Part shown: positions 32,277 through 41,155 of the stretch, piece after piece
Layout of the letters: each line of letters begins with the position of its first letter
How positions within the stretch are numbered: position 1 is the stretch's first letter
Assembly (NCBI GenBank): GCA_942493265.1
Contig: OW818688.1
Span: 4,191,147-4,255,146, forward strand
DNA length: 64,000 bases
Reading direction: 5' to 3'
Origin: an uncultured Bacteroidota bacterium
Lineage (GTDB): Bacteria; Bacteroidota; Bacteroidia; Bacteroidales; UBA12481
The notes under the pieces: model-generated
Databases searched by the model: none
What the model saw: the letters and a program-made list of their open reading frames with translations, nothing else
What the model was told of the DNA's origin: nothing
Program-made: the position numbers and the translations under genes

Positions 32277-33254
32277 ATGAGCCTTCATTCAATTTATCAT
32301 CCGGAAATATTTCAGGGCAGCATCAGGCGGACCAACTATTTTGAAGGCTGGTATTTCAAGCAGGTGGCCGCAGATTTCAGTGAGGTATTATCCATCATTC
32401 CGGGTATTTCGCTGGCAAAAAACCCGCATGCTTTTATTCAGGTTATCAATGGCATGAGCGGTGCCACACATTATTTTGAATATCCCGTTTCAGAATTCCA
32501 TGCCGATCGCCGGAAACTGATTATTCAGATCGGGGAAAGCACTTTTACCCCGGAGGGAATAAAACTCAACATTGACAAACAGGATTTATACCTTTCCGGT
32601 ACACTTGAATTCAGTAACAGGGTCACCTGGCCCAGGCGCTTATGGGCACCCGGGATCATGGGATGGTACAGCTTTGTTCCCCGCATGGAATGCTACCATG
32701 CGGTGGTCTCGCTCGATCATGGGGTGGCTGGAAAGCTGCTCTATCAGGATCACGAAATGAATTTTACCGATGGCAGGGGGTATATTGAAAAAGATTGGGG
32801 CACCTCTATGCCGGAGAGCTGGATATGGCTGCATACCAACACATTTGAAAGTAAGGGAACCTCGGTAATGCTTTCAATTGCCAAAATCCCCTGGGGGAAA
32901 AGCTTTTTTACAGGATTTATTGCATTCGTTTTGCATGAAGGAAAAATCTATCGGTTTGCCACCTATAACGGAAGCAGGATATTATCCTTTAACCTTCATA
33001 ATCAGGATCTTCACGTTTCTTTAGGCAACAAGGATTTCACGCTCGAAATCACCGCCCGCCAAAAGACAGCCGGAAAATTAAAAGCGCCGGTAAAAGGGCT
33101 GATGGAAAGATACATCAAGGAGAGCATTGACTCAGATGTTGAAATCCGGCTCAGCAGCAAACCGGGATCCCTGATTTTCAGCGGTAAGGCTGGCAGATCG
33201 GGGATGGAGCTTGTGGGTATCCCGGAAAGTCTGATCCCGCAAACTGACATTTAA
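32277..33254 (+). CDS. Tocopherol-cyclase-like family protein (function unknown in bacteria)
   Basis: 325 aa. The N-terminal YFEGWYFK motif is typical of the tocopherol cyclase (VTE1-like) family. Confidence 0.55.
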   Translation: MSLHSIYHPEIFQGSIRRTNYFEGWYFKQVAADFSEVLSIIPGISLAKNPHAFIQVINGMSGATHYFEYPVSEFHADRRKLIIQIGESTFTPEGIKLNIDKQDLYLSGTLEFSNRVTWPRRLWAPGIMGWYSFVPRMECYHAVVSLDHGVAGKLLYQDHEMNFTDGRGYIEKDWGTSMPESWIWLHTNTFESKGTSVMLSIAKIPWGKSFFTGFIAFVLHEGKIYRFATYNGSRILSFNLHNQDLHVSLGNKDFTLEITARQKTAGKLKAPVKGLMERYIKESIDSDVEIRLSSKPGSLIFSGKAGRSGMELVGIPESLIPQTDI

Positions 33255-33286
33255 TTTGCATTTCTCAATTCTCTTGTTCAACTTTG
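33255..33286 (+). promoter_or_regulatory. Candidate promoter of the trp leader/operon (-33 TTTG, -7 CAACTTTG)
   Basis: TTTG at 33255-33258. A 20-nt spacer precedes CAACTTTG at 33279-33286, which is a partial TAnnTTTG. The predicted start site lies at or just before the leader ATG. Confidence 0.3.
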
Positions 33287-33293
33287 CACCGCT

Positions 33294-33338
33294 ATGAAAC
33301 AGAATTCGAACTTTAACAATTGGTGGCACGTAACCTGA
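33294..33338 (+). CDS. trpL: trp operon leader peptide MKQNSNFNNWWHVT (tandem Trp codons)
   Basis: My own reading gives 14 sense codons plus TGA. Trp-Trp sits at codons 10-11 (33321-33326), 43 nt upstream of a strong terminator and 97 nt upstream of trpE. Confidence 0.65.
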   Translation: MKQNSNFNNWWHVT

Positions 33339-33381
33339 TCCGGTTTCCGTGAGAAAACGTGTTGCCCTATACTCTATACAG

Positions 33382-33410
33382 GCCCGTCGTACTCACGACG
33401 GGCTTTTTTA
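33382..33410 (+). terminator. Rho-independent terminator (attenuator) upstream of trpE
   Basis: GCCCGTCGT (33382-33390), loop ACTC, ACGACGGGC (33395-33403), followed by TTTTTTA. Perfect 9-bp GC-rich stem. Confidence 0.8.
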
Positions 33411-33434
33411 TTTACCAGCGCTAAAAAAAACACA

Positions 33435-34829
33435 ATGTACCGAATACGAACGCATACACTTACCACCCTGTCCGACACACTCACTCCGGTGAGCCTTTAC
33501 CTGAAGGTGCGCGACCTGTTTCCGCGGTCGATATTGCTGGAAAGCAGCGATTATCATGGCGGCCGCGACAATTATTCATTCATCTGTCTGGAGCCGCTGG
33601 CCGGAATTATGGTTGAAAATGGCCGGGTGAAACAGTCATTTCCCGGCAAGGACGCAGAAACCATTGAAGGAAAAGACATTCCGGCTATGCTGGATCATTT
33701 CGTGTCGCTTTTTGAAACCAGTGATGCCTCAAAAAGCAACCGTCTGAATGGATTTTTTGGATACATGGGCTATGATGCCGCCTGCCATTTCGAAGCGGTT
33801 CCGGCTCCCAAAGACAAAAACGATCCGCTGATGATCCCTGAAATCCGGTATCACCTTTACCATTACCTGATTGCGATCAACCATTTCCGGAATACCGTCA
33901 CCCTGATTGAAAACCGGTTCGACGATGAGCCCTCAACTCTGGGAACCGTTCAAACGCTGCTCACCAACCGGAATTTTTCCTTTTTTCCGTTTACAGTAAG
34001 TGGAGAATGCGATTCCAACCTGACCGATGAGGAATATACCCGGCTGGTATCGGCAGGAAAGCACCATTGCCATGTTGGGGATGTTTACCAGATTGTGCTC
34101 TCCAGGCGGTTCGACCAGCCTTTTCTTGGCGATGAGTTCAATGTATACCGCAACCTCAGGTCTGTGAATCCTTCGCCCTACCTGTTTTACTTTGATTACG
34201 GCAGTTACCGGATATTCGGATCATCGCCCGAGGCTCACCTGGTAGTTAAAAACGGTAAGGCCACCATCGCACCGATTGCCGGAACCCTTCGCAGATCGGG
34301 TGATGATGACCACGACCGGGTGCTGGCCGGACAATTATCCGCGGATCCTAAAGAAAATGCGGAACACGTAATGCTGGTGGATCTGGCACGAAACGACCTC
34401 AGCCGTCATGCCACCGGGGTTTCAGTAGATACCTACAAGGAAATACAATTCTTCTCGCATGTACTCCACATGGTTTCAAGCGTATCCGGTGATCTGACCG
34501 AAAATCCGCAACTGTTCAGGCTCCTCGGCGACACCTTCCCGGCCGGAACGCTTAGCGGGGCGCCGAAAATGAGGGCTATGGAACTGATCAGCCAGTATGA
34601 AAAAACCAACCGGGGATTTTACGGAGGCTGCATCGGGCAGATCGGATTTGATAAAAGCCTGAACCAGGCCATCATGATCCGGTCCTTCCTTTCCATCGGA
34701 AACCATCTCATTTTTCAGGCTGGCGCAGGCATTGTAGCCGATTCCGTTGAAGAGAATGAACTTCAGGAGGTCAATAACAAACTGGGGGCCCTTCGGGAGG
34801 CCATCCGGCTGGCAGATACCAGTAAATAA
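33435..34829 (+). CDS. trpE: Anthranilate synthase component I
   Basis: 464 aa with chorismate-binding motifs (GAPKMRAMELI, GFYGGCIG, GAGIVADS). Confidence 0.95.
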   Translation: MYRIRTHTLTTLSDTLTPVSLYLKVRDLFPRSILLESSDYHGGRDNYSFICLEPLAGIMVENGRVKQSFPGKDAETIEGKDIPAMLDHFVSLFETSDASKSNRLNGFFGYMGYDAACHFEAVPAPKDKNDPLMIPEIRYHLYHYLIAINHFRNTVTLIENRFDDEPSTLGTVQTLLTNRNFSFFPFTVSGECDSNLTDEEYTRLVSAGKHHCHVGDVYQIVLSRRFDQPFLGDEFNVYRNLRSVNPSPYLFYFDYGSYRIFGSSPEAHLVVKNGKATIAPIAGTLRRSGDDDHDRVLAGQLSADPKENAEHVMLVDLARNDLSRHATGVSVDTYKEIQFFSHVLHMVSSVSGDLTENPQLFRLLGDTFPAGTLSGAPKMRAMELISQYEKTNRGFYGGCIGQIGFDKSLNQAIMIRSFLSIGNHLIFQAGAGIVADSVEENELQEVNNKLGALREAIRLADTSK

Positions 34830-34846
34830 ATAAATATCAGTCTATT

Positions 34847-35416
34847 ATGAATATTTTATTGCTCGACAATTACGATAGTTTCACCTACAATATAGCCCAT
34901 TACCTGCGGGAACTCACCGGCAGCGAGATTCCTGTCATCCGGAACGACCAGATAAGTCTGGAGGCAGTGGGAAAATATGATGCGATAGTGCTTTCGCCCG
35001 GACCCGGCTTGCCGGCAGATGCCGGTATCATGAACGACCTGATCCGGAAATATGCCGGAACCAGGAAAATTCTCGGAATCTGTCTGGGCATGCAGGCGAT
35101 CGGTGAAGTATTTGGTGGCACACTATTAAATCTGCCATCCGTTTTTCACGGGGTGGCAACCACTACAGATATTGTGGTCGACGATGAGATACTTTTCCGG
35201 GGACTGCCGAAAAAAATCGAGGTTGGCCGCTACCATTCCTGGGTAGTCGACGAACATAACCTTCCATCGGATCTGGAAATTACCGCCACCGATGAAACCG
35301 GCCGCATCATGGCCCTGCGGCACAAAAAATTTGATGTCAGGGGCGTACAATTCCATCCCGAATCCGTTCTTACCCCTCACGGCAAAACCATGCTCAACAA
35401 CTGGATACAGGGCTAA
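34847..35416 (+). CDS. trpG: Anthranilate synthase component II (glutamine amidotransferase)
   Basis: 189 aa with a GATase-1 triad context (GICLGMQ, FHPES). Confidence 0.95.
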   Translation: MNILLLDNYDSFTYNIAHYLRELTGSEIPVIRNDQISLEAVGKYDAIVLSPGPGLPADAGIMNDLIRKYAGTRKILGICLGMQAIGEVFGGTLLNLPSVFHGVATTTDIVVDDEILFRGLPKKIEVGRYHSWVVDEHNLPSDLEITATDETGRIMALRHKKFDVRGVQFHPESVLTPHGKTMLNNWIQG

Positions 35417-35445
35417 CCGACAACAGATAACAGACAACCGACAAA

Positions 35446-36441
35446 ATGAAAGACATACTTCACCAACTCTTTGAATATAAAACCCTCTCGAGGCAGCAGG
35501 CTGAAGAGGTTCTGCGGCAAATCGCATCCGGACAGGTAAATGAAACCCAGATGGCCGTGTTCATGGCGGTATTCCTGATGCGGAGCATCACCATCGAGGA
35601 ACTGATCGGCTTCAGGGAAGCGCTGAAATCGCTTGCCATCCCGGTTGATTTGTCCGATTACAATACCATAGACCTATGCGGTACCGGCGGAGATGGCAAG
35701 AACACCTTCAACATATCAACCATGACCTCCTTTGTGGTTGCCGGAACCGGTGCAAAAGTAGCCAAACATGGCAACTACGGGGTTTCATCCTCCTGCGGAT
35801 CCTCCAATGTATTAGAGTATTTCGGATACAAATTTTCCAACGATCAGGAAAAGCTGAAAAAGGAAATCGAGGAAGCCGGAATATGCTTTCTGCATGCTCC
35901 GCTCTTCAATCCGGCAATGAAAAACATCGCTCCCGTGCGGCGCCAGCTGGGAATTAAAACTTTTTTCAATATCCTGGGACCGATGATCAATCCCTCGTCA
36001 CCGCAAAACCAAATGGCCGGTGTATTCAGTCTGGAGCTTGCTCGCATGTATAACTATCTTTATCAGGAACTTGATGTTAATTATGCCATCATCCACAGTT
36101 TGGATGGGTATGATGAAATTTCACTCACCGCGCCTTTCCAGCTGATCACCAAACAAGGTGAAAAGATTATGGATCCCGCCGATCTGGGATTCTCTCGGAT
36201 CGATCCCAAAGAGATATCGGGAGGTGATTCAGTGGAAGAATCTGCTGCCATTTTCAAGCGCATCCTTTCCGGAGATGGCACCCAATCAGAAAAAAATGTA
36301 ATTGTGGCCAATGCCGGTCTGGCGCTAACCCTCCTACACCCTGAACTGCCGCTTGATGATTGCCTGGCCATGGCAAAAGAATCCATGGAATCAGGGAAAG
36401 CACTTTCATCATTCAGGAAGCTGATTCCTGAAACCCTTTAG
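35446..36441 (+). CDS. trpD: Anthranilate phosphoribosyltransferase
   Basis: 331 aa with the GTGGDG motif and KHGN. Confidence 0.95.
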   Translation: MKDILHQLFEYKTLSRQQAEEVLRQIASGQVNETQMAVFMAVFLMRSITIEELIGFREALKSLAIPVDLSDYNTIDLCGTGGDGKNTFNISTMTSFVVAGTGAKVAKHGNYGVSSSCGSSNVLEYFGYKFSNDQEKLKKEIEEAGICFLHAPLFNPAMKNIAPVRRQLGIKTFFNILGPMINPSSPQNQMAGVFSLELARMYNYLYQELDVNYAIIHSLDGYDEISLTAPFQLITKQGEKIMDPADLGFSRIDPKEISGGDSVEESAAIFKRILSGDGTQSEKNVIVANAGLALTLLHPELPLDDCLAMAKESMESGKALSSFRKLIPETL

Positions 36442-36445
36442 AACG

Positions 36446-37240
36446 ATGAACCAACTGGAAACCATAGCAGCCTTCAAGCGTACCGAGGTAGCAGGAAGGA
36501 AAGAGATCTACCCTGTCAATAAGCTGGAGAACAGTGCGTTATTTGACCGAAAAACGGTATCACTGACCGACAGGATCCTACAAAACGGATCTACCGGAAT
36601 TATCGCTGAATTCAAGCGAAAAAGCCCGTCGAAAGGCATGATCAATGCCCATTCGGATGTGGCCGAGGTAACCCGCGGATATATTAAGGCCGGAGCAGCA
36701 GCCCTATCGGTTCTTACCGACAGCCGTTTTTTCGGCGGAAACTCTGAAGATCTGTTGAAGGCAAGGGAGGTAAATGATTGTCCGGTTTTGCGGAAGGAAT
36801 TCATAGTAGATCCGTATCAGATTATTGAAGCCAAATCGATTGGTGCGGATGCCATATTACTGATAGCCGCCATTTTAACTCCCGCTGAAACGTTGAATTT
36901 TGCAACACTTGCACGTTCGCTGGGGATGGCAGCCATTTTGGAAATACATGGAAAAGAAGAACTTGGGCACTTGAATGACCAGATCACCATATTGGGGGTA
37001 AACAACCGGAACCTGGCAGATTTCAGTGTATCACTGGAGATCTCGCTGTCATTGGCACCATTTATCGCCAATGGCATAACGGCCATTTCAGAAAGTGGCA
37101 TCCGCCATCCTGCTGATATCCTCCTGTTAAAACAAGCCGGATACAAAGGTTTTTTGATTGGAGAGCAGTTCATGTCGACTGATGATCCGGCATTTGCCTG
37201 CCACACCTTTATCTCCCAGCTAAACCAAATGCAAAAATGA
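36446..37240 (+). CDS. trpC: Indole-3-glycerol phosphate synthase
   Basis: 264 aa with EFKRKSPSKG and the typical TIM-barrel layout. Confidence 0.95.
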   Translation: MNQLETIAAFKRTEVAGRKEIYPVNKLENSALFDRKTVSLTDRILQNGSTGIIAEFKRKSPSKGMINAHSDVAEVTRGYIKAGAAALSVLTDSRFFGGNSEDLLKAREVNDCPVLRKEFIVDPYQIIEAKSIGADAILLIAAILTPAETLNFATLARSLGMAAILEIHGKEELGHLNDQITILGVNNRNLADFSVSLEISLSLAPFIANGITAISESGIRHPADILLLKQAGYKGFLIGEQFMSTDDPAFACHTFISQLNQMQK

Positions 37241-37863
37241 AAGCCGGGCTAGTCAAAATATGCGGTCTTACCGATCCCGGGAATATCCTTGAAGTAATCC
37301 GGCTGAGGCCCGACTTTATCGGGTTGATCTTTCATCCGGGATCTCCGAGATATATATCTGACCCTGAAGAACTTGTATTCCTGAATAAACTTCATGAACG
37401 TCCGTTGGTAACGGGAGTTTTTGTCAACTCGGATATTGCGCGGATCCGTGAAATCTCAAACAGGATCCGGCTGGATGTCATCCAGTTGCATGGGACAGAA
37501 ACCCCGGAATACTGTGAGGAACTCAAAAATTGCAACCAAATGGTTATCAAGGCCTTTGGCATCCGGCCCGGATTTGATTTTCAGGAAACGGAACCTTACC
37601 GGGGGCTGGTCCGGTATTTCCTGTTCGACAGCGACAGTCCGAAATTTGGTGGCACCGGCCAGCCTTTCGACCATGAAATTTTAAAAAATTACCAGGGGGA
37701 TACGCCCTTCCTTCTTAGCGGGGGGATATCTTCTGAAACGCAGATATTTCCAGATCACCGGCAATTTGCCGGGGTGGATTTGAATTCCAGGTTTGAAACT
37801 GCGCCCGGAATCAAGGATATTGAATTATTGCAAACCTTTTTAAAAAACTTCAGGCATGAATAA
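37237..37863 (+). CDS. trpF: Phosphoribosylanthranilate isomerase
   Basis: 208 aa with N-terminal VKICGL. ATGA overlap with trpC. Confidence 0.9.
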
Positions 37864-39055
37864 ACCAGAATATTTCCCCGATAAAGATGGCTACTATGGT
37901 GAATTCGGAGGTGCTTTTATTCCGGAGATGCTGGTACCCAACATCAAAGAATTGCGCGACAGCTACCTCAGGATAATTGAAAGCCAAGAATTCAGGGATG
38001 AATTTCATGAGTTGCTACGCGACTATTCAGGCCGGCCCACCCCACTCTATCTGGCAAAAAGGTTATCTGAAAAATACCGCACCAACATTTTCCTGAAACG
38101 TGAGGATCTGAATCATACCGGGGCTCACAAGATCAACAACACCATCGGGCAGGTTTTGCTGGCAGAAAAACTGGGCAAAAAGAGGATTATCGCCGAAACC
38201 GGCGCGGGGCAGCATGGGGTTGCCACGGCCACCGTGTGTGCGCTGAAAGGGCTTGAATGCGTTGTATACATGGGAGCTCTGGATGTTGAGCGTCAGGCGC
38301 CGAATGTAACCAAGATGAAAATGCTAGGAGCCACGGTAGTCCCGGTACAATCGGGCAATAAAACGCTTAAGGATGCCACCAATGAGGCTATGCGTGACTG
38401 GATCAATCATCCCGACGATACCTATTATATAATCGGATCCGTTGTTGGGCCACATCCTTATCCGGATCTGGTAGCCAGGATGCAATCGGTTATCAGTTAT
38501 GAGATATCGGTTCAGATTAATGCCCGGACCGGCAGGAATTATCCGGATTATGTTTTGGCATGCGTTGGAGGAGGCAGTAATGCGGCAGGCGGCTTTTATG
38601 CTTTCCTGGATAATCCGGCAGTCAGGCTGATCGGTGCAGAAGCGGCCGGGATGGGTATTGACACCAGTGAAACCGCAGCTACACTGGCATTGGGCCGGAC
38701 AGGCATACTACACGGAAGCAAATCGAAGCTCATACAAGACGAGTATGGCCAGGTTATTGAGCCCTACTCGATCTCGGCAGGACTGGATTATCCGGGAGTG
38801 GGTCCGTTGCATTCTCATCTTCAGGCAACCGGCAGATGCACATACCTGCCGGTAACGGACCGGGAGGCACTGGATGCCGCCATGGAACTCACCCGACTTG
38901 AGGGCATCATCCCTGCGCTGGAATCGGCACATGCGCTGGCCCTGCTTCCAAAACTGAGCTGGGACCCGAATGAGCAGGTTGTGATCGTATTAAGCGGTCG
39001 CGGCGATAAGGATATGGATACTTACAGTAAATATTTCGACCATGAATCGCATTGA
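37856..39055 (+). CDS. trpB: Tryptophan synthase beta chain
   Basis: 399 aa with the PLP lysine motif HTGAHKINN and GGGSNA. Confidence 0.95.
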
Positions 39056-39848
39056 CGAACTTTTCATACGCAAGAAAGAATCGATACTATCGGTTTATTT
39101 CACAGCTGGTTATCCCGAATTAGCAGATACCGCGCTGGTCATCTCCGGTCTGGAAAAAGCCGGAGCAGACCTGATTGAGATCGGGTTTCCCTTTTCCGAT
39201 CCCGTTGCTGACGGACCGGTTATACAGGCGAGCAGCCATCAGGCATTAATCAACGGAATGAATCTTGACATCCTTTTTGATCAGCTCAGGGAACTCAGAA
39301 AGACCAGCAGCATACCCAAAATCATGATGGGTTATTACAATACCGTTTATCAATATCAAATGGAACGGTTTATAGATCAATGTGTTGAATGTGGGATCGA
39401 TGGCGTGATCATCCCCGATCTGCCGCCTGAAATTTATGAAAGAGAATACCGGACACTTTTTGAAAAGTCTGGCATTCATTTTATCTGCCTTGTGGCCCCG
39501 AAAACTTCACCGGATAGAACAAAATATCTGGTTTCGCTGAGTCGCGGGTTCATCTACCTGTTGTCGTCCTCCTCAACCACCGGCAACAATTCCGCTGCAG
39601 GAAAAGAGGACTTGAGTGCCGTCGCACATCTGAAAGGGCAAAACACCCTGATCGGCTTTGGCATACATGACCATGAAACATTTGAGATGGCTTGCCGGCA
39701 GGCTAATGGAGCGATTATCGGGACCGCCTTTATCCGGCACCTGAACGAGGGTTTCGGAGTATTGAGATCGGCTGAAAAATCAAAAATCGGCCGGGCAAGC
39801 ACCATTGAAACCCTTTGCAGGGAATTCGTTGGCCGGATACGAGGGTAA
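39042..39848 (+). CDS. trpA: Tryptophan synthase alpha chain
   Basis: 268 aa with [15 protein letters not shown]. Confidence 0.95.
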
Positions 39849-39940
39849 TCTTTTTGTGTAATGTATACTGATAATCAGTGAAAGAGGCTAACTTTAACGG
39901 CACGAAAGCCTGCCCTTTACCTTTGCAAACAAGTTTAGTC

Positions 39941-41155
39941 ATGAGAAAAGTGATGCCGACTTATGAAGAATTAGAGAAAAGAATCGTTGAACTTGAGGAG
40001 ATCATCCGAAAGAACACTTATACAACCGGAAGCCAATTAACAGACTCGATCAAATCCAGAGAGGATTTGCTTACACTCTTCATAAAACATTCCCCAATAT
40101 ATGCTTATATCAAAGAGGTAGCTCCCAGCGAAAGTCGTGTAATGATTGCCAGTGAGAATTATATTGACATGATAGGCGTAAAAGGCTCCGAAATGGTCAA
40201 TAAAACCATGGAAGAACTGTTCCCCCCGGAATTCGCCGCAAAGATTACGGCAGATGACTGGATTGTTGTTTCTGATGGAAGGGAATTAAAGCTGGATGAA
40301 GAATTGAATGACCGGAGCTACACAACAATCAAGTACCCGATTTATCACCAGGAAAAAAACCTGCTGGCAGGCTATACAATTGATCTGACTGAACTCAAGC
40401 AGGCGCAGCGGGATGTAATCACCAAGAATGAAGAGTTGTTGAAACTGGTTGCCGAAAAGGACAAATTCTTTTCCGTCATGGCCCATGACCTGCGCAGCCC
40501 GTTTACCGCACTGCTCGGCTTTACCCAGATGCTTGTTGAAGACCTGGCCGAGCTGAGTCAGGACGAGGTGCACAAGATTGCCCTAATATTGAGGAATACA
40601 TCAAACAGCTTATACAGCTTGCTGGAAAACCTGCTCGAATGGTCGCGCATTCAGAGAGGGATAACTTCCTTTAAACCCAAAGGGTTCGAGCTTCTGCCGA
40701 AGATTAATGAAAGTTTGGAATTGGTTATGGAATCAGCCAATAAAAAGGAAATCGAAATCGGATTCCAGGTTCCCTCAGGTCTGTTTGTTTTTGCAGAACC
40801 GAATATGATCGGGTCAACTATCCGGAACTTAGTCTCCAATGCGGTGAAGTATACCGCCAAGGGCGGAAAGATCATGGTTTCGGCCAGGCCGGTGAGCGGC
40901 AACCTGATTGAAATTTCCATACGCGACAATGGTATCGGCATGAACCAACTGATTATTGATAAACTATTCCGTCTGGATGAGCATCCCAGTCGGAAAGGAA
41001 CTGAAGGTGAACCCAGTACCGGATTGGGGCTGATCATCTGCAAAGACTTTACCGAAAAAAACGGAGGAAAGATCTGGGCAGAGAGTCAGGAGGGGAAAGG
41101 TTCAATATTTCATTTTACCGTTCCACAATTGCCGGAAAATCTGCCGGATCAGTAA
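39941..41155 (+). CDS. Cytoplasmic PAS sensor histidine kinase
   Basis: I prefer ATG 39941 (MRKVMPTYEEL) over GTG 39878. A perfect TAnnTTTG (TACCTTTG, 39918-39925) lies 16 nt upstream. H-box FFSVMAHDLRSPF and HATPase motifs (DNGIGM, GLGLIICK). Confidence 0.85.
   Translation: MRKVMPTYEELEKRIVELEEIIRKNTYTTGSQLTDSIKSREDLLTLFIKHSPIYAYIKEVAPSESRVMIASENYIDMIGVKGSEMVNKTMEELFPPEFAAKITADDWIVVSDGRELKLDEELNDRSYTTIKYPIYHQEKNLLAGYTIDLTELKQAQRDVITKNEELLKLVAEKDKFFSVMAHDLRSPFTALLGFTQMLVEDLAELSQDEVHKIALILRNTSNSLYSLLENLLEWSRIQRGITSFKPKGFELLPKINESLELVMESANKKEIEIGFQVPSGLFVFAEPNMIGSTIRNLVSNAVKYTAKGGKIMVSARPVSGNLIEISIRDNGIGMNQLIIDKLFRLDEHPSRKGTEGEPSTGLGLIICKDFTEKNGGKIWAESQEGKGSIFHFTVPQLPENLPDQ

Follow-up and report, generated by a model that had tools for sequence, protein, structure and literature searches.

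A probable ribosome-mediated tryptophan attenuator, divergent within the Bacteroid-trp class, upstream of the trp operon of an uncultured Bacteroidales bacterium

The window analysed here is a 64,000-nucleotide stretch of contig OW818688.1, from an uncultured Bacteroidota bacterium (Bacteroidales; UBA12481). It contains a seven-gene tryptophan operon, for all of whose proteins there are NCBIfam matches, and upstream of its first gene, trpE, a short leader ORF followed by a terminator hairpin. The nearest public relatives of the genome are metagenome-assembled genomes (MAGs) labelled uncultured Bacteroidales or 'Porphyromonadaceae', from groundwater and lakes. Directly upstream of the leader promoter is a co-directional 325-aa ORF (32277-33254, + strand), which ends with TAA at 33252-33254 and has no NCBIfam match. 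Because a different sequence precedes the trp leader in three relatives (L002, L003 and L005), this ORF is not linked to the operon. On the other side, 29 nt past trpA and on the same strand, is a sensor histidine kinase gene (39878-41155, + strand) whose best NCBIfam match, FimS-like, lies far below the cut-off. The features of the leader region and the operon are as follows.

33255-33258, + strand: TTTG, -33 promoter element
33279-33286, + strand: CAACTTTG, -7 promoter element
33291, + strand: predicted transcription start (about +/-2 nt)
33294-33338, + strand: trpL-like leader ORF, MKQNSNFNNWWHVT plus TGA stop (direct reading; relatives)
33321-33326, + strand: predicted regulatory Trp codons, UGG UGG
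33322-33331, + strand: region 1, GGUGGCACGU, predicted 5' strand of a 1:2 anti-antiterminator or pause hairpin
33348-33353, + strand: region 2a, CGUGAG, conserved 5' strand of the antiterminator core
33357-33366, + strand: region 2b, ACGUGUUGCC
33380-33405, + strand: intrinsic terminator hairpin of 11 pairs with loop ACUC at 33391-33394 (terminator scan; RNAfold; RNAalifold on relatives)
33392-33397, + strand: CUCACG, target of the antiterminator core, three loop nucleotides plus the first three of the 3' arm (duplex tests; constrained folds)
33404-33409, + strand: terminator U-run, U6 (direct reading; terminator scan)
33435-39848, + strand: trpE-trpG-trpD-trpC-trpF-trpB-trpA operon

The leader ORF begins with ATG at 33294, carries TGG TGG at 33321-33326 and ends with TGA at 33336-33338, and would thus encode a 14-aa peptide with tryptophan at positions 10 and 11. 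Direct reading bears out these coordinates, which were those of the original prediction. The E. coli leader peptide TrpL is likewise 14 aa long with tryptophan at positions 10-11, and the geometry had been described as E. coli-like on that account. The length and Trp positions are true of the window, but the match is a coincidence, because the eight closest relatives encode 15-aa leader peptides with WWW. In other lineages the leader peptide is approximately 10-26 aa long with two to four tryptophans; the Trp run has three codons in most relatives and four in some. The two Trp codons and 14-aa length in the window look like the product of a derived 3-nt loss. Outside the Trp run, the peptide is poorly conserved among relatives. 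The leader ATG is preceded by CACCGCU, which is not A-rich, and there is no Shine-Dalgarno sequence at the window's leader.

Related elements were collected by way of TrpE searches, which yielded 22 full-length trpE loci, drawn from the same genus and family and from other families in the order. At 20 of these, a leader ORF with WW, WWW or WWWW and a GC-rich terminator is found just upstream of trpE, and in the alignment of these 20 sequences UGGUGG is invariant. A covariance model, R1, was built from the 20 leaders. In a sample of 151 genomes from across the order it has matches in 91, and in the window's own genome the trp leader is the only copy of the element that it finds. Among the 90 full-length order-wide matches, 52 are directly before trpE and 24 before trpB, and 14 are weak and have no Trp ORF. 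Beyond these genomes, matches occur in other Bacteroidales families (Prolixibacteraceae, Rikenellaceae and a Bacteroides fragilis MAG), as well as in Flavobacteriaceae and Saprospiraceae. The matched trpE leaders include those of Mangrovibacterium, Sunxiuqinia, Gaoshiqia, the B. fragilis MAG, Rikenellaceae, Saprospiraceae, Salegentibacter, Autumnicola, Hanstruepera and Gangjinia.

The Trp codons of these elements are consistently part of an ORF. An upstream ATG, defined as one at least four codons 5' of UGGUGG, in the same frame and with no stop between, is present in 121 of 125 distinct R1 matches with UGGUGG; in the other two frames, only 1 and 3 of the same 125 have one. The small ORF and its Trp run are therefore conserved in related genomes, in the 20 leaders as in the wider set.

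In several relatives from other families, tandem leader-plus-terminator units (two complete) precede a single trp gene, whereas the window has one. In L018, for example, MNTNRLNNYWWWQFTYSFYREEGKLS is followed by MNNSNLHIWWWHNSGIKP. The tandem units are located as follows.

L018, 2949-3231, - strand: tandem Trp leader units
L051, 1501-1782, + strand: tandem Trp leader units
L061, 424-735, - strand: tandem Trp leader units
L065, 439-825, - strand: tandem Trp leader units
L075, 409-708, - strand: tandem Trp leader units
L089, 401-667, + strand: tandem Trp leader units

Candidate promoter boxes had been named at 33255 and 33279, and both are present. TTTG at 33255 fits the -33 consensus of the Bacteroidetes sigma-A promoter (PMC7366714), and after a 20-nt spacer the -7 box agrees with the consensus TAnnTTTG at 7 of 8 specified or free positions, the exception being its first T, which is C. 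In eight close genus members, TTTG at -39 and nAnnTTTG at -11 from the leader ATG are the same, while the sequence further upstream diverges; other families have canonical TAnnTTTG. In Flavobacterium psychrophilum, the sigma-A box lies at -12 to -5 (PMC9723704), and by that analogy transcription would start near 33291, 5 nt after G33286 and 3 nt before the AUG. The leader mRNA would then be nearly leaderless, with a 5' UTR of approximately 3 nt. This is unusual for Bacteroidetes, in which 5' UTRs shorter than 10 nt make up only 3.7% in Bacteroides thetaiotaomicron (PMC7366714) and leaderless mRNAs only 5.5% in F. psychrophilum (PMC9723704).

Downstream of the leader ORF, the terminator has the arms GCCCGTCGT (33382-33390; GCCCGUCGU as RNA) and ACGACGGGC (33395-33403), separated by ACTC and followed by T6. 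The original prediction had described it as a GC-rich 9-bp hairpin with a T-run, 43 nt past the leader stop codon; it is present there, and the terminator scan extends its stem to 11 pairs. RNAalifold on 20 relatives finds compensatory changes at 5 of 10 terminator pairs. The 25 nt from the U-run to the trpE start (33411-33434) are A-rich, CUAAAAAAAACACA AUG, and lack a Shine-Dalgarno sequence, as Bacteroidota start sites commonly do.

Two alternative pairings had also been suggested by eye, and both can be read directly from the sequence: GGCACGT (33325-33331) with ACGTGTTGCC (33357-33366), and CGTGAG (33348-33353) with CTCACG (33392-33397). The first is part of a 10-bp helix of the minimum-energy fold, in which region 1 pairs with region 2b (the 1:2 helix). 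The second is the conserved, covarying core of an antiterminator, in which region 2a pairs across the terminator loop and into its 3' arm. In constrained and truncated folds, region 2b can instead pair with the terminator 5' arm (ACG with CGU at 33388-33390 and GCC with GGC at 33381-33383), and most relatives have a comparable GCC-type segment that pairs at the base of that arm.

In the window the 1:2 duplex is clear, with an energy of -14.6 kcal/mol (z = -2.3), but family-wide this helix is only loosely conserved and statistically weak, with 20% of leaders at p<=0.05. The CGUGAG:CUCACG duplex of the window (-9.7 kcal/mol) is not significant by itself, since 6.5% of shuffles are as good (p about 0.065), and its reality thus rests on comparative data. 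Both MAFFT and covariance-model alignments (A1-A4) shift the register of CGUGAG between families, for which reason alignment-based counting of antiterminator pairs was dropped in favour of register-free duplex optimisation with shuffled or permuted controls.

Across 74 non-redundant leaders compared with dinucleotide shuffles, the segment after the Trp codons pairs with the loop and initial 3'-arm bases of the terminator with a mean z of -2.45, and 59% of the leaders reach p<=0.05. A classical 2:3 antiterminator, in which the same region would pair with the 5' arm only, was rejected, as that complementarity is at chance in the 74 leaders (mean z = -0.09); the 5' arm is engaged only via short 3-bp helices that extend the core. 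Cognate partners average -9.46 kcal/mol against -6.81 +/- 0.24 kcal/mol for permuted partners, with 0 of 10,000 permutations as good, and the 33 leaders lacking UCACG in the terminator give -8.37 against -5.21 +/- 0.38 kcal/mol, again with 0 of 10,000 as good, although these permutation figures overstate significance because the leaders, mostly from different families, were treated as independent and are not fully so.

The core itself varies in a compensated manner. Besides CGUGAG/CUCACG, the variants include UCGAAAA/UUUUCGG, CCGAGU/ACUCGG and CCGGGAA/UUCCCGA, as well as GUCGUAAG/CUUGCGGC, GCUGUGAU/AUCACAGC, CCGGUGAAA/UUUCACCGG and GCUUCCUGU/ACAGGAAGC. Comparison of the regions upstream of trpE orthologues, which had been proposed as a check, thus reveals covariation in both the terminator and the antiterminator core. 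The 5'-strand motif of the antiterminator is conserved whichever of the three frames it occupies with respect to the leader ORF, which means that the constraint acts on the RNA. This strand begins a median of 19 nt (IQR 17-21) past the last Trp codon, which is just beyond a stalled ribosome, and in the commonest arrangement the leader's UGA stop lies inside it. A small hairpin, CCGG-UUU-CCG (33339-33352), sequesters CGUGA in the window's minimum-energy fold; it is not conserved in L006-L008 (GGUUAACG) and was for that reason left out of the mechanism.

The two structures are mutually exclusive in folding. RNAfold of 33290-33415 gives -34.7 kcal/mol (z = -2.66 compared to shuffles), with the 10-bp 1:2 helix and the terminator, and in the full ribosome-free transcript these have probabilities of 0.98 and 0.95, respectively. 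When a ribosome with its A site on the second Trp codon is modelled as a mask and the transcript end is varied, an extended antiterminator dominates for transcripts ending at 33397-33399 (P = 0.98-0.99). It consists of 33348-33353 with 33392-33397, 33357-33359 with 33388-33390, 33364-33366 with 33381-33383 and an apical hairpin of 33368-33371 with 33375-33378, so that region 2 captures the terminator 5' arm, its loop and the first bases of its 3' arm. Once 33401-33403 have emerged, however, the terminator is the thermodynamically favoured structure even if the ribosome remains stalled. The antiterminator sought in the folding check is thus energetically competitive up to 33397-33399 and not from 33401 onward; in these models it is only metastable, and read-through would have to be kinetic, as in other attenuators. 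Capture of the loop and 3' arm, with at least 4 nt paired with upstream sequence, is observed in truncated folds of 70 of the 74 relatives.

These observations suggest how the element may work. Transcription would start a few nucleotides before the leader AUG, and region 1, which overlaps both Trp codons, would pair with region 2b as long as no ribosome is present. If charged tRNA-Trp is scarce, a ribosome translating the leader would stall with a UGG codon in its A site, covering region 1 and leaving the RNA from 33338 onward free. The freed region 2 (CGUGAG...ACG...GCC, 33348-33366) could then pair with GGC...CGU...CUCACG (33381-33397), a stretch made up of the 5' arm and loop of the terminator together with three nucleotides at the start of its 3' arm. 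With these bases occupied, the hairpin would not be able to form during the passage of RNA polymerase over the U-run, and transcription would continue into trpE. If tryptophan is plentiful, the ribosome would reach the UGA and leave, the 1:2 helix would re-form or region 2a would be occluded, the 11-bp terminator would form and transcription would stop at approximately 33405-33410. In the window's genus, the stop codon lies 12 nt before CGUGAG, and a simple mask for the footprint of a ribosome at the stop codon leaves 5 of 6 core pairs possible (P = 0.83). Because most of the core stays free in that situation, the terminating branch probably needs ribosome release and 1:2 refolding, or steric effects.

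Like classical attenuators, the element has a leader ORF with tandem regulatory codons and an intrinsic terminator between that ORF and the first structural gene, and the modelled antiterminator, exclusive with the terminator, would be exposed by a ribosome stalled at the Trp codons. The reading as a ribosome-mediated Trp attenuator, made in the original prediction, is strongly supported by comparative sequence data, which show conservation or covariation of the ORF, the Trp run, the terminator and the CGUGAG:CUCACG pairing both within the order and outside it. Together, the mini-gene and the switchable terminator very probably form a real tryptophan sensor. The probability that the element is a ribosome-mediated, leader-peptide attenuator of trpEGDCFBA and a divergent Bacteroidales member of the Bacteroid-trp class can be put at roughly 0.85.

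It is conceivable that a genuine RNA switch is governed instead by a TRAP-like protein, by direct binding of tRNA or another ligand or by Rho, and that the Trp codons are incidental. An additional factor could help an antiterminator that is only metastable. However, no TRAP (PF02081) or TrpR (PF01371) homologue was found in the complete genome, in searches in which control genomes gave matches; no T-box or riboswitch family in Rfam 15 is matched; and a (G/U)AG repeat array is likewise absent. A ribosome footprint predicts just what is seen, UGG codons that are invariantly in frame and stand at a fixed 17-21 nt from the antiterminator strand, and these features would otherwise go unexplained, making such a switch very unlikely.

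Slimmer still is the chance of an additional or predominant role in trans for the terminated leader transcript (approximately 115 nt) or its peptide. There is an alpha-proteobacterial precedent, in that rnTrpL and peTrpL of Sinorhizobium meliloti are reported to act in trans (PMC6614838, PMC7298713), and under plentiful tryptophan an attenuated transcript would be expected to build up, given its stable terminator hairpin. The poor conservation of the peptide outside the Trp run nevertheless argues against a peptide function, and a role in trans would add to attenuation in cis rather than replace it.

That the hairpin is merely a terminator of the upstream gene or a constitutive insulator, and the 14-codon ORF a chance frame with no regulatory role, deserves hardly any credence: the hairpin does lie in an intergenic region after a co-directional gene, and the window alone gives modest statistics for the alternative pairing, but conserved promoter boxes separate that gene from the ORF, the leader and terminator remain attached to trpE in L002, L003 and L005 despite unrelated upstream sequence, the Trp runs are in frame in nearly all related elements and, in operons headed by trpB, the element stands before that gene.

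The Bacteroid-trp leader (RF01692; Weinberg et al. 2010, Genome Biol 11:R31, PMC2864571), presumed to act by attenuation, is described as controlling trpB and trpE in Bacteroidetes and as having at least two conserved UGG codons, 'presumably a peptide leader', and 'a loosely conserved hairpin', with no consensus diagram (PMC2864571, Additional file 1). The window's leader resembles it in its place upstream of trpE, in the UGGUGG within its short ORF and in the loose hairpin over the Trp codons, here 33322-33331 with 33357-33366, an equivalent of which appears in the RF01692 alignment of the same-order relative L020. It differs in that the published description has no antiterminator, whereas an antiterminator core and its spacing are defined here.

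In Rfam searches of the whole window, no family reached its gathering threshold. RF01692 gave no match at E<=10 in a 1.1-kb scan of the window and none in the whole genome, and its gathering cut-off of 49 bits was thus not reached. The best permissive match is Trp_leader (RF00513), at 26.8 bits (E = 0.0054) against a gathering cut-off of 41, and the resemblance is limited to the UGGUGG run and the terminator. The 'trpB ncRNA motif' (RF04312) is also matched below threshold, with 23.4 bits in the window (33321-33415) and 22.3 bits in L020 (1379-1469) against a cut-off of 59; its consensus alignment looks like another hairpin-plus-terminator leader. Other permissive matches are terminator-driven sRNA look-alikes.

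The RF01692 model fares differently in other families. It scores Salegentibacter (L166) at 67.3 bits and Hanstruepera (L153) at 63.3 bits, above the cut-off, where R1 gives 61.5 and 65.5 bits; L020 falls just short at 47.5 bits. There is no match at E<=0.05 on the tested Bacteroidales trpE leaders, including that of the B. fragilis MAG (L155, 420-553), L118, L143 and L172, with the sole exception among these tested loci of a Lentimicrobiaceae MAG (L148) at a sub-threshold 46.7 bits. In total, 0 of 11 scanned Bacteroidales trpE loci score above the cut-off, while Flavobacteriaceae leaders lie well above it. The model, which stops at the terminator 5' arm, seems tuned to Flavobacteriales. Since R1 also picks up the two elements that RF01692 places above its cut-off, the window's leader belongs biologically to the Bacteroid-trp class.

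The E. coli trpL attenuator (RF00513) offers a second comparison. The window shares with it the 14-aa peptide with W10-W11, three codons from the Trp pair to the stop, the position upstream of trpE and, as proposed above, the 1:2/2:3/3:4 logic. Unlike E. coli trpL, it has no Shine-Dalgarno sequence, a promoter of the Bacteroidetes -33/-7 type and no TrpR, and its strongest antiterminator helix crosses the terminator loop and enters the 3' arm, and is not confined to the 5' arm.

A clear instance of trp attenuation in Bacteroidota had been considered worth documenting in itself. That framing does not hold, because Trp leader peptides of Bacteroidetes have been catalogued as RF01692 since 2010. 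No experimental work on trp attenuators of Bacteroidota turned up in the literature searched, nor did a description of an antiterminator and spacing rule for the Bacteroid-trp class. Attenuators in Bacteroidetes/Chlorobi were reportedly predicted by Vitreschak et al. in FEMS Microbiol Lett in 2004.

The device is thus not new in kind. What is added is a divergent member missed by Rfam and, for the class, a definition of the antiterminator and of its spacing. It may be that Bacteroidota trp leaders share one geometry across the phylum, in which the antiterminator strand lies a fixed 17-21 nt past the last Trp codon, contains the stop codon (NCG-UGA) in most lineages and invades the terminator loop and the first 3'-arm bases rather than the 5' arm only, and to which this genus adds an almost leaderless mRNA (5' UTR of approximately 3 nt) translated without Shine-Dalgarno pairing. 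This combined proposal is tentative, its chances falling a little short of even.

No new kind of mechanism is opened by these results. Given that none of the scanned Bacteroidales loci scores above the RF01692 cut-off, such leaders go unannotated, and the antiterminator and spacing rule could be used to improve the covariance model. Both the CGUGAG:CUCACG pairing and the spacing rule can be mutated and tested in genetically tractable relatives, Bacteroides thetaiotaomicron and Flavobacterium johnsoniae among them. For the organism itself, the implication is that ribosome-sensed attenuation is most likely the means by which a lineage with neither a TrpR nor a TRAP homologue regulates tryptophan synthesis.
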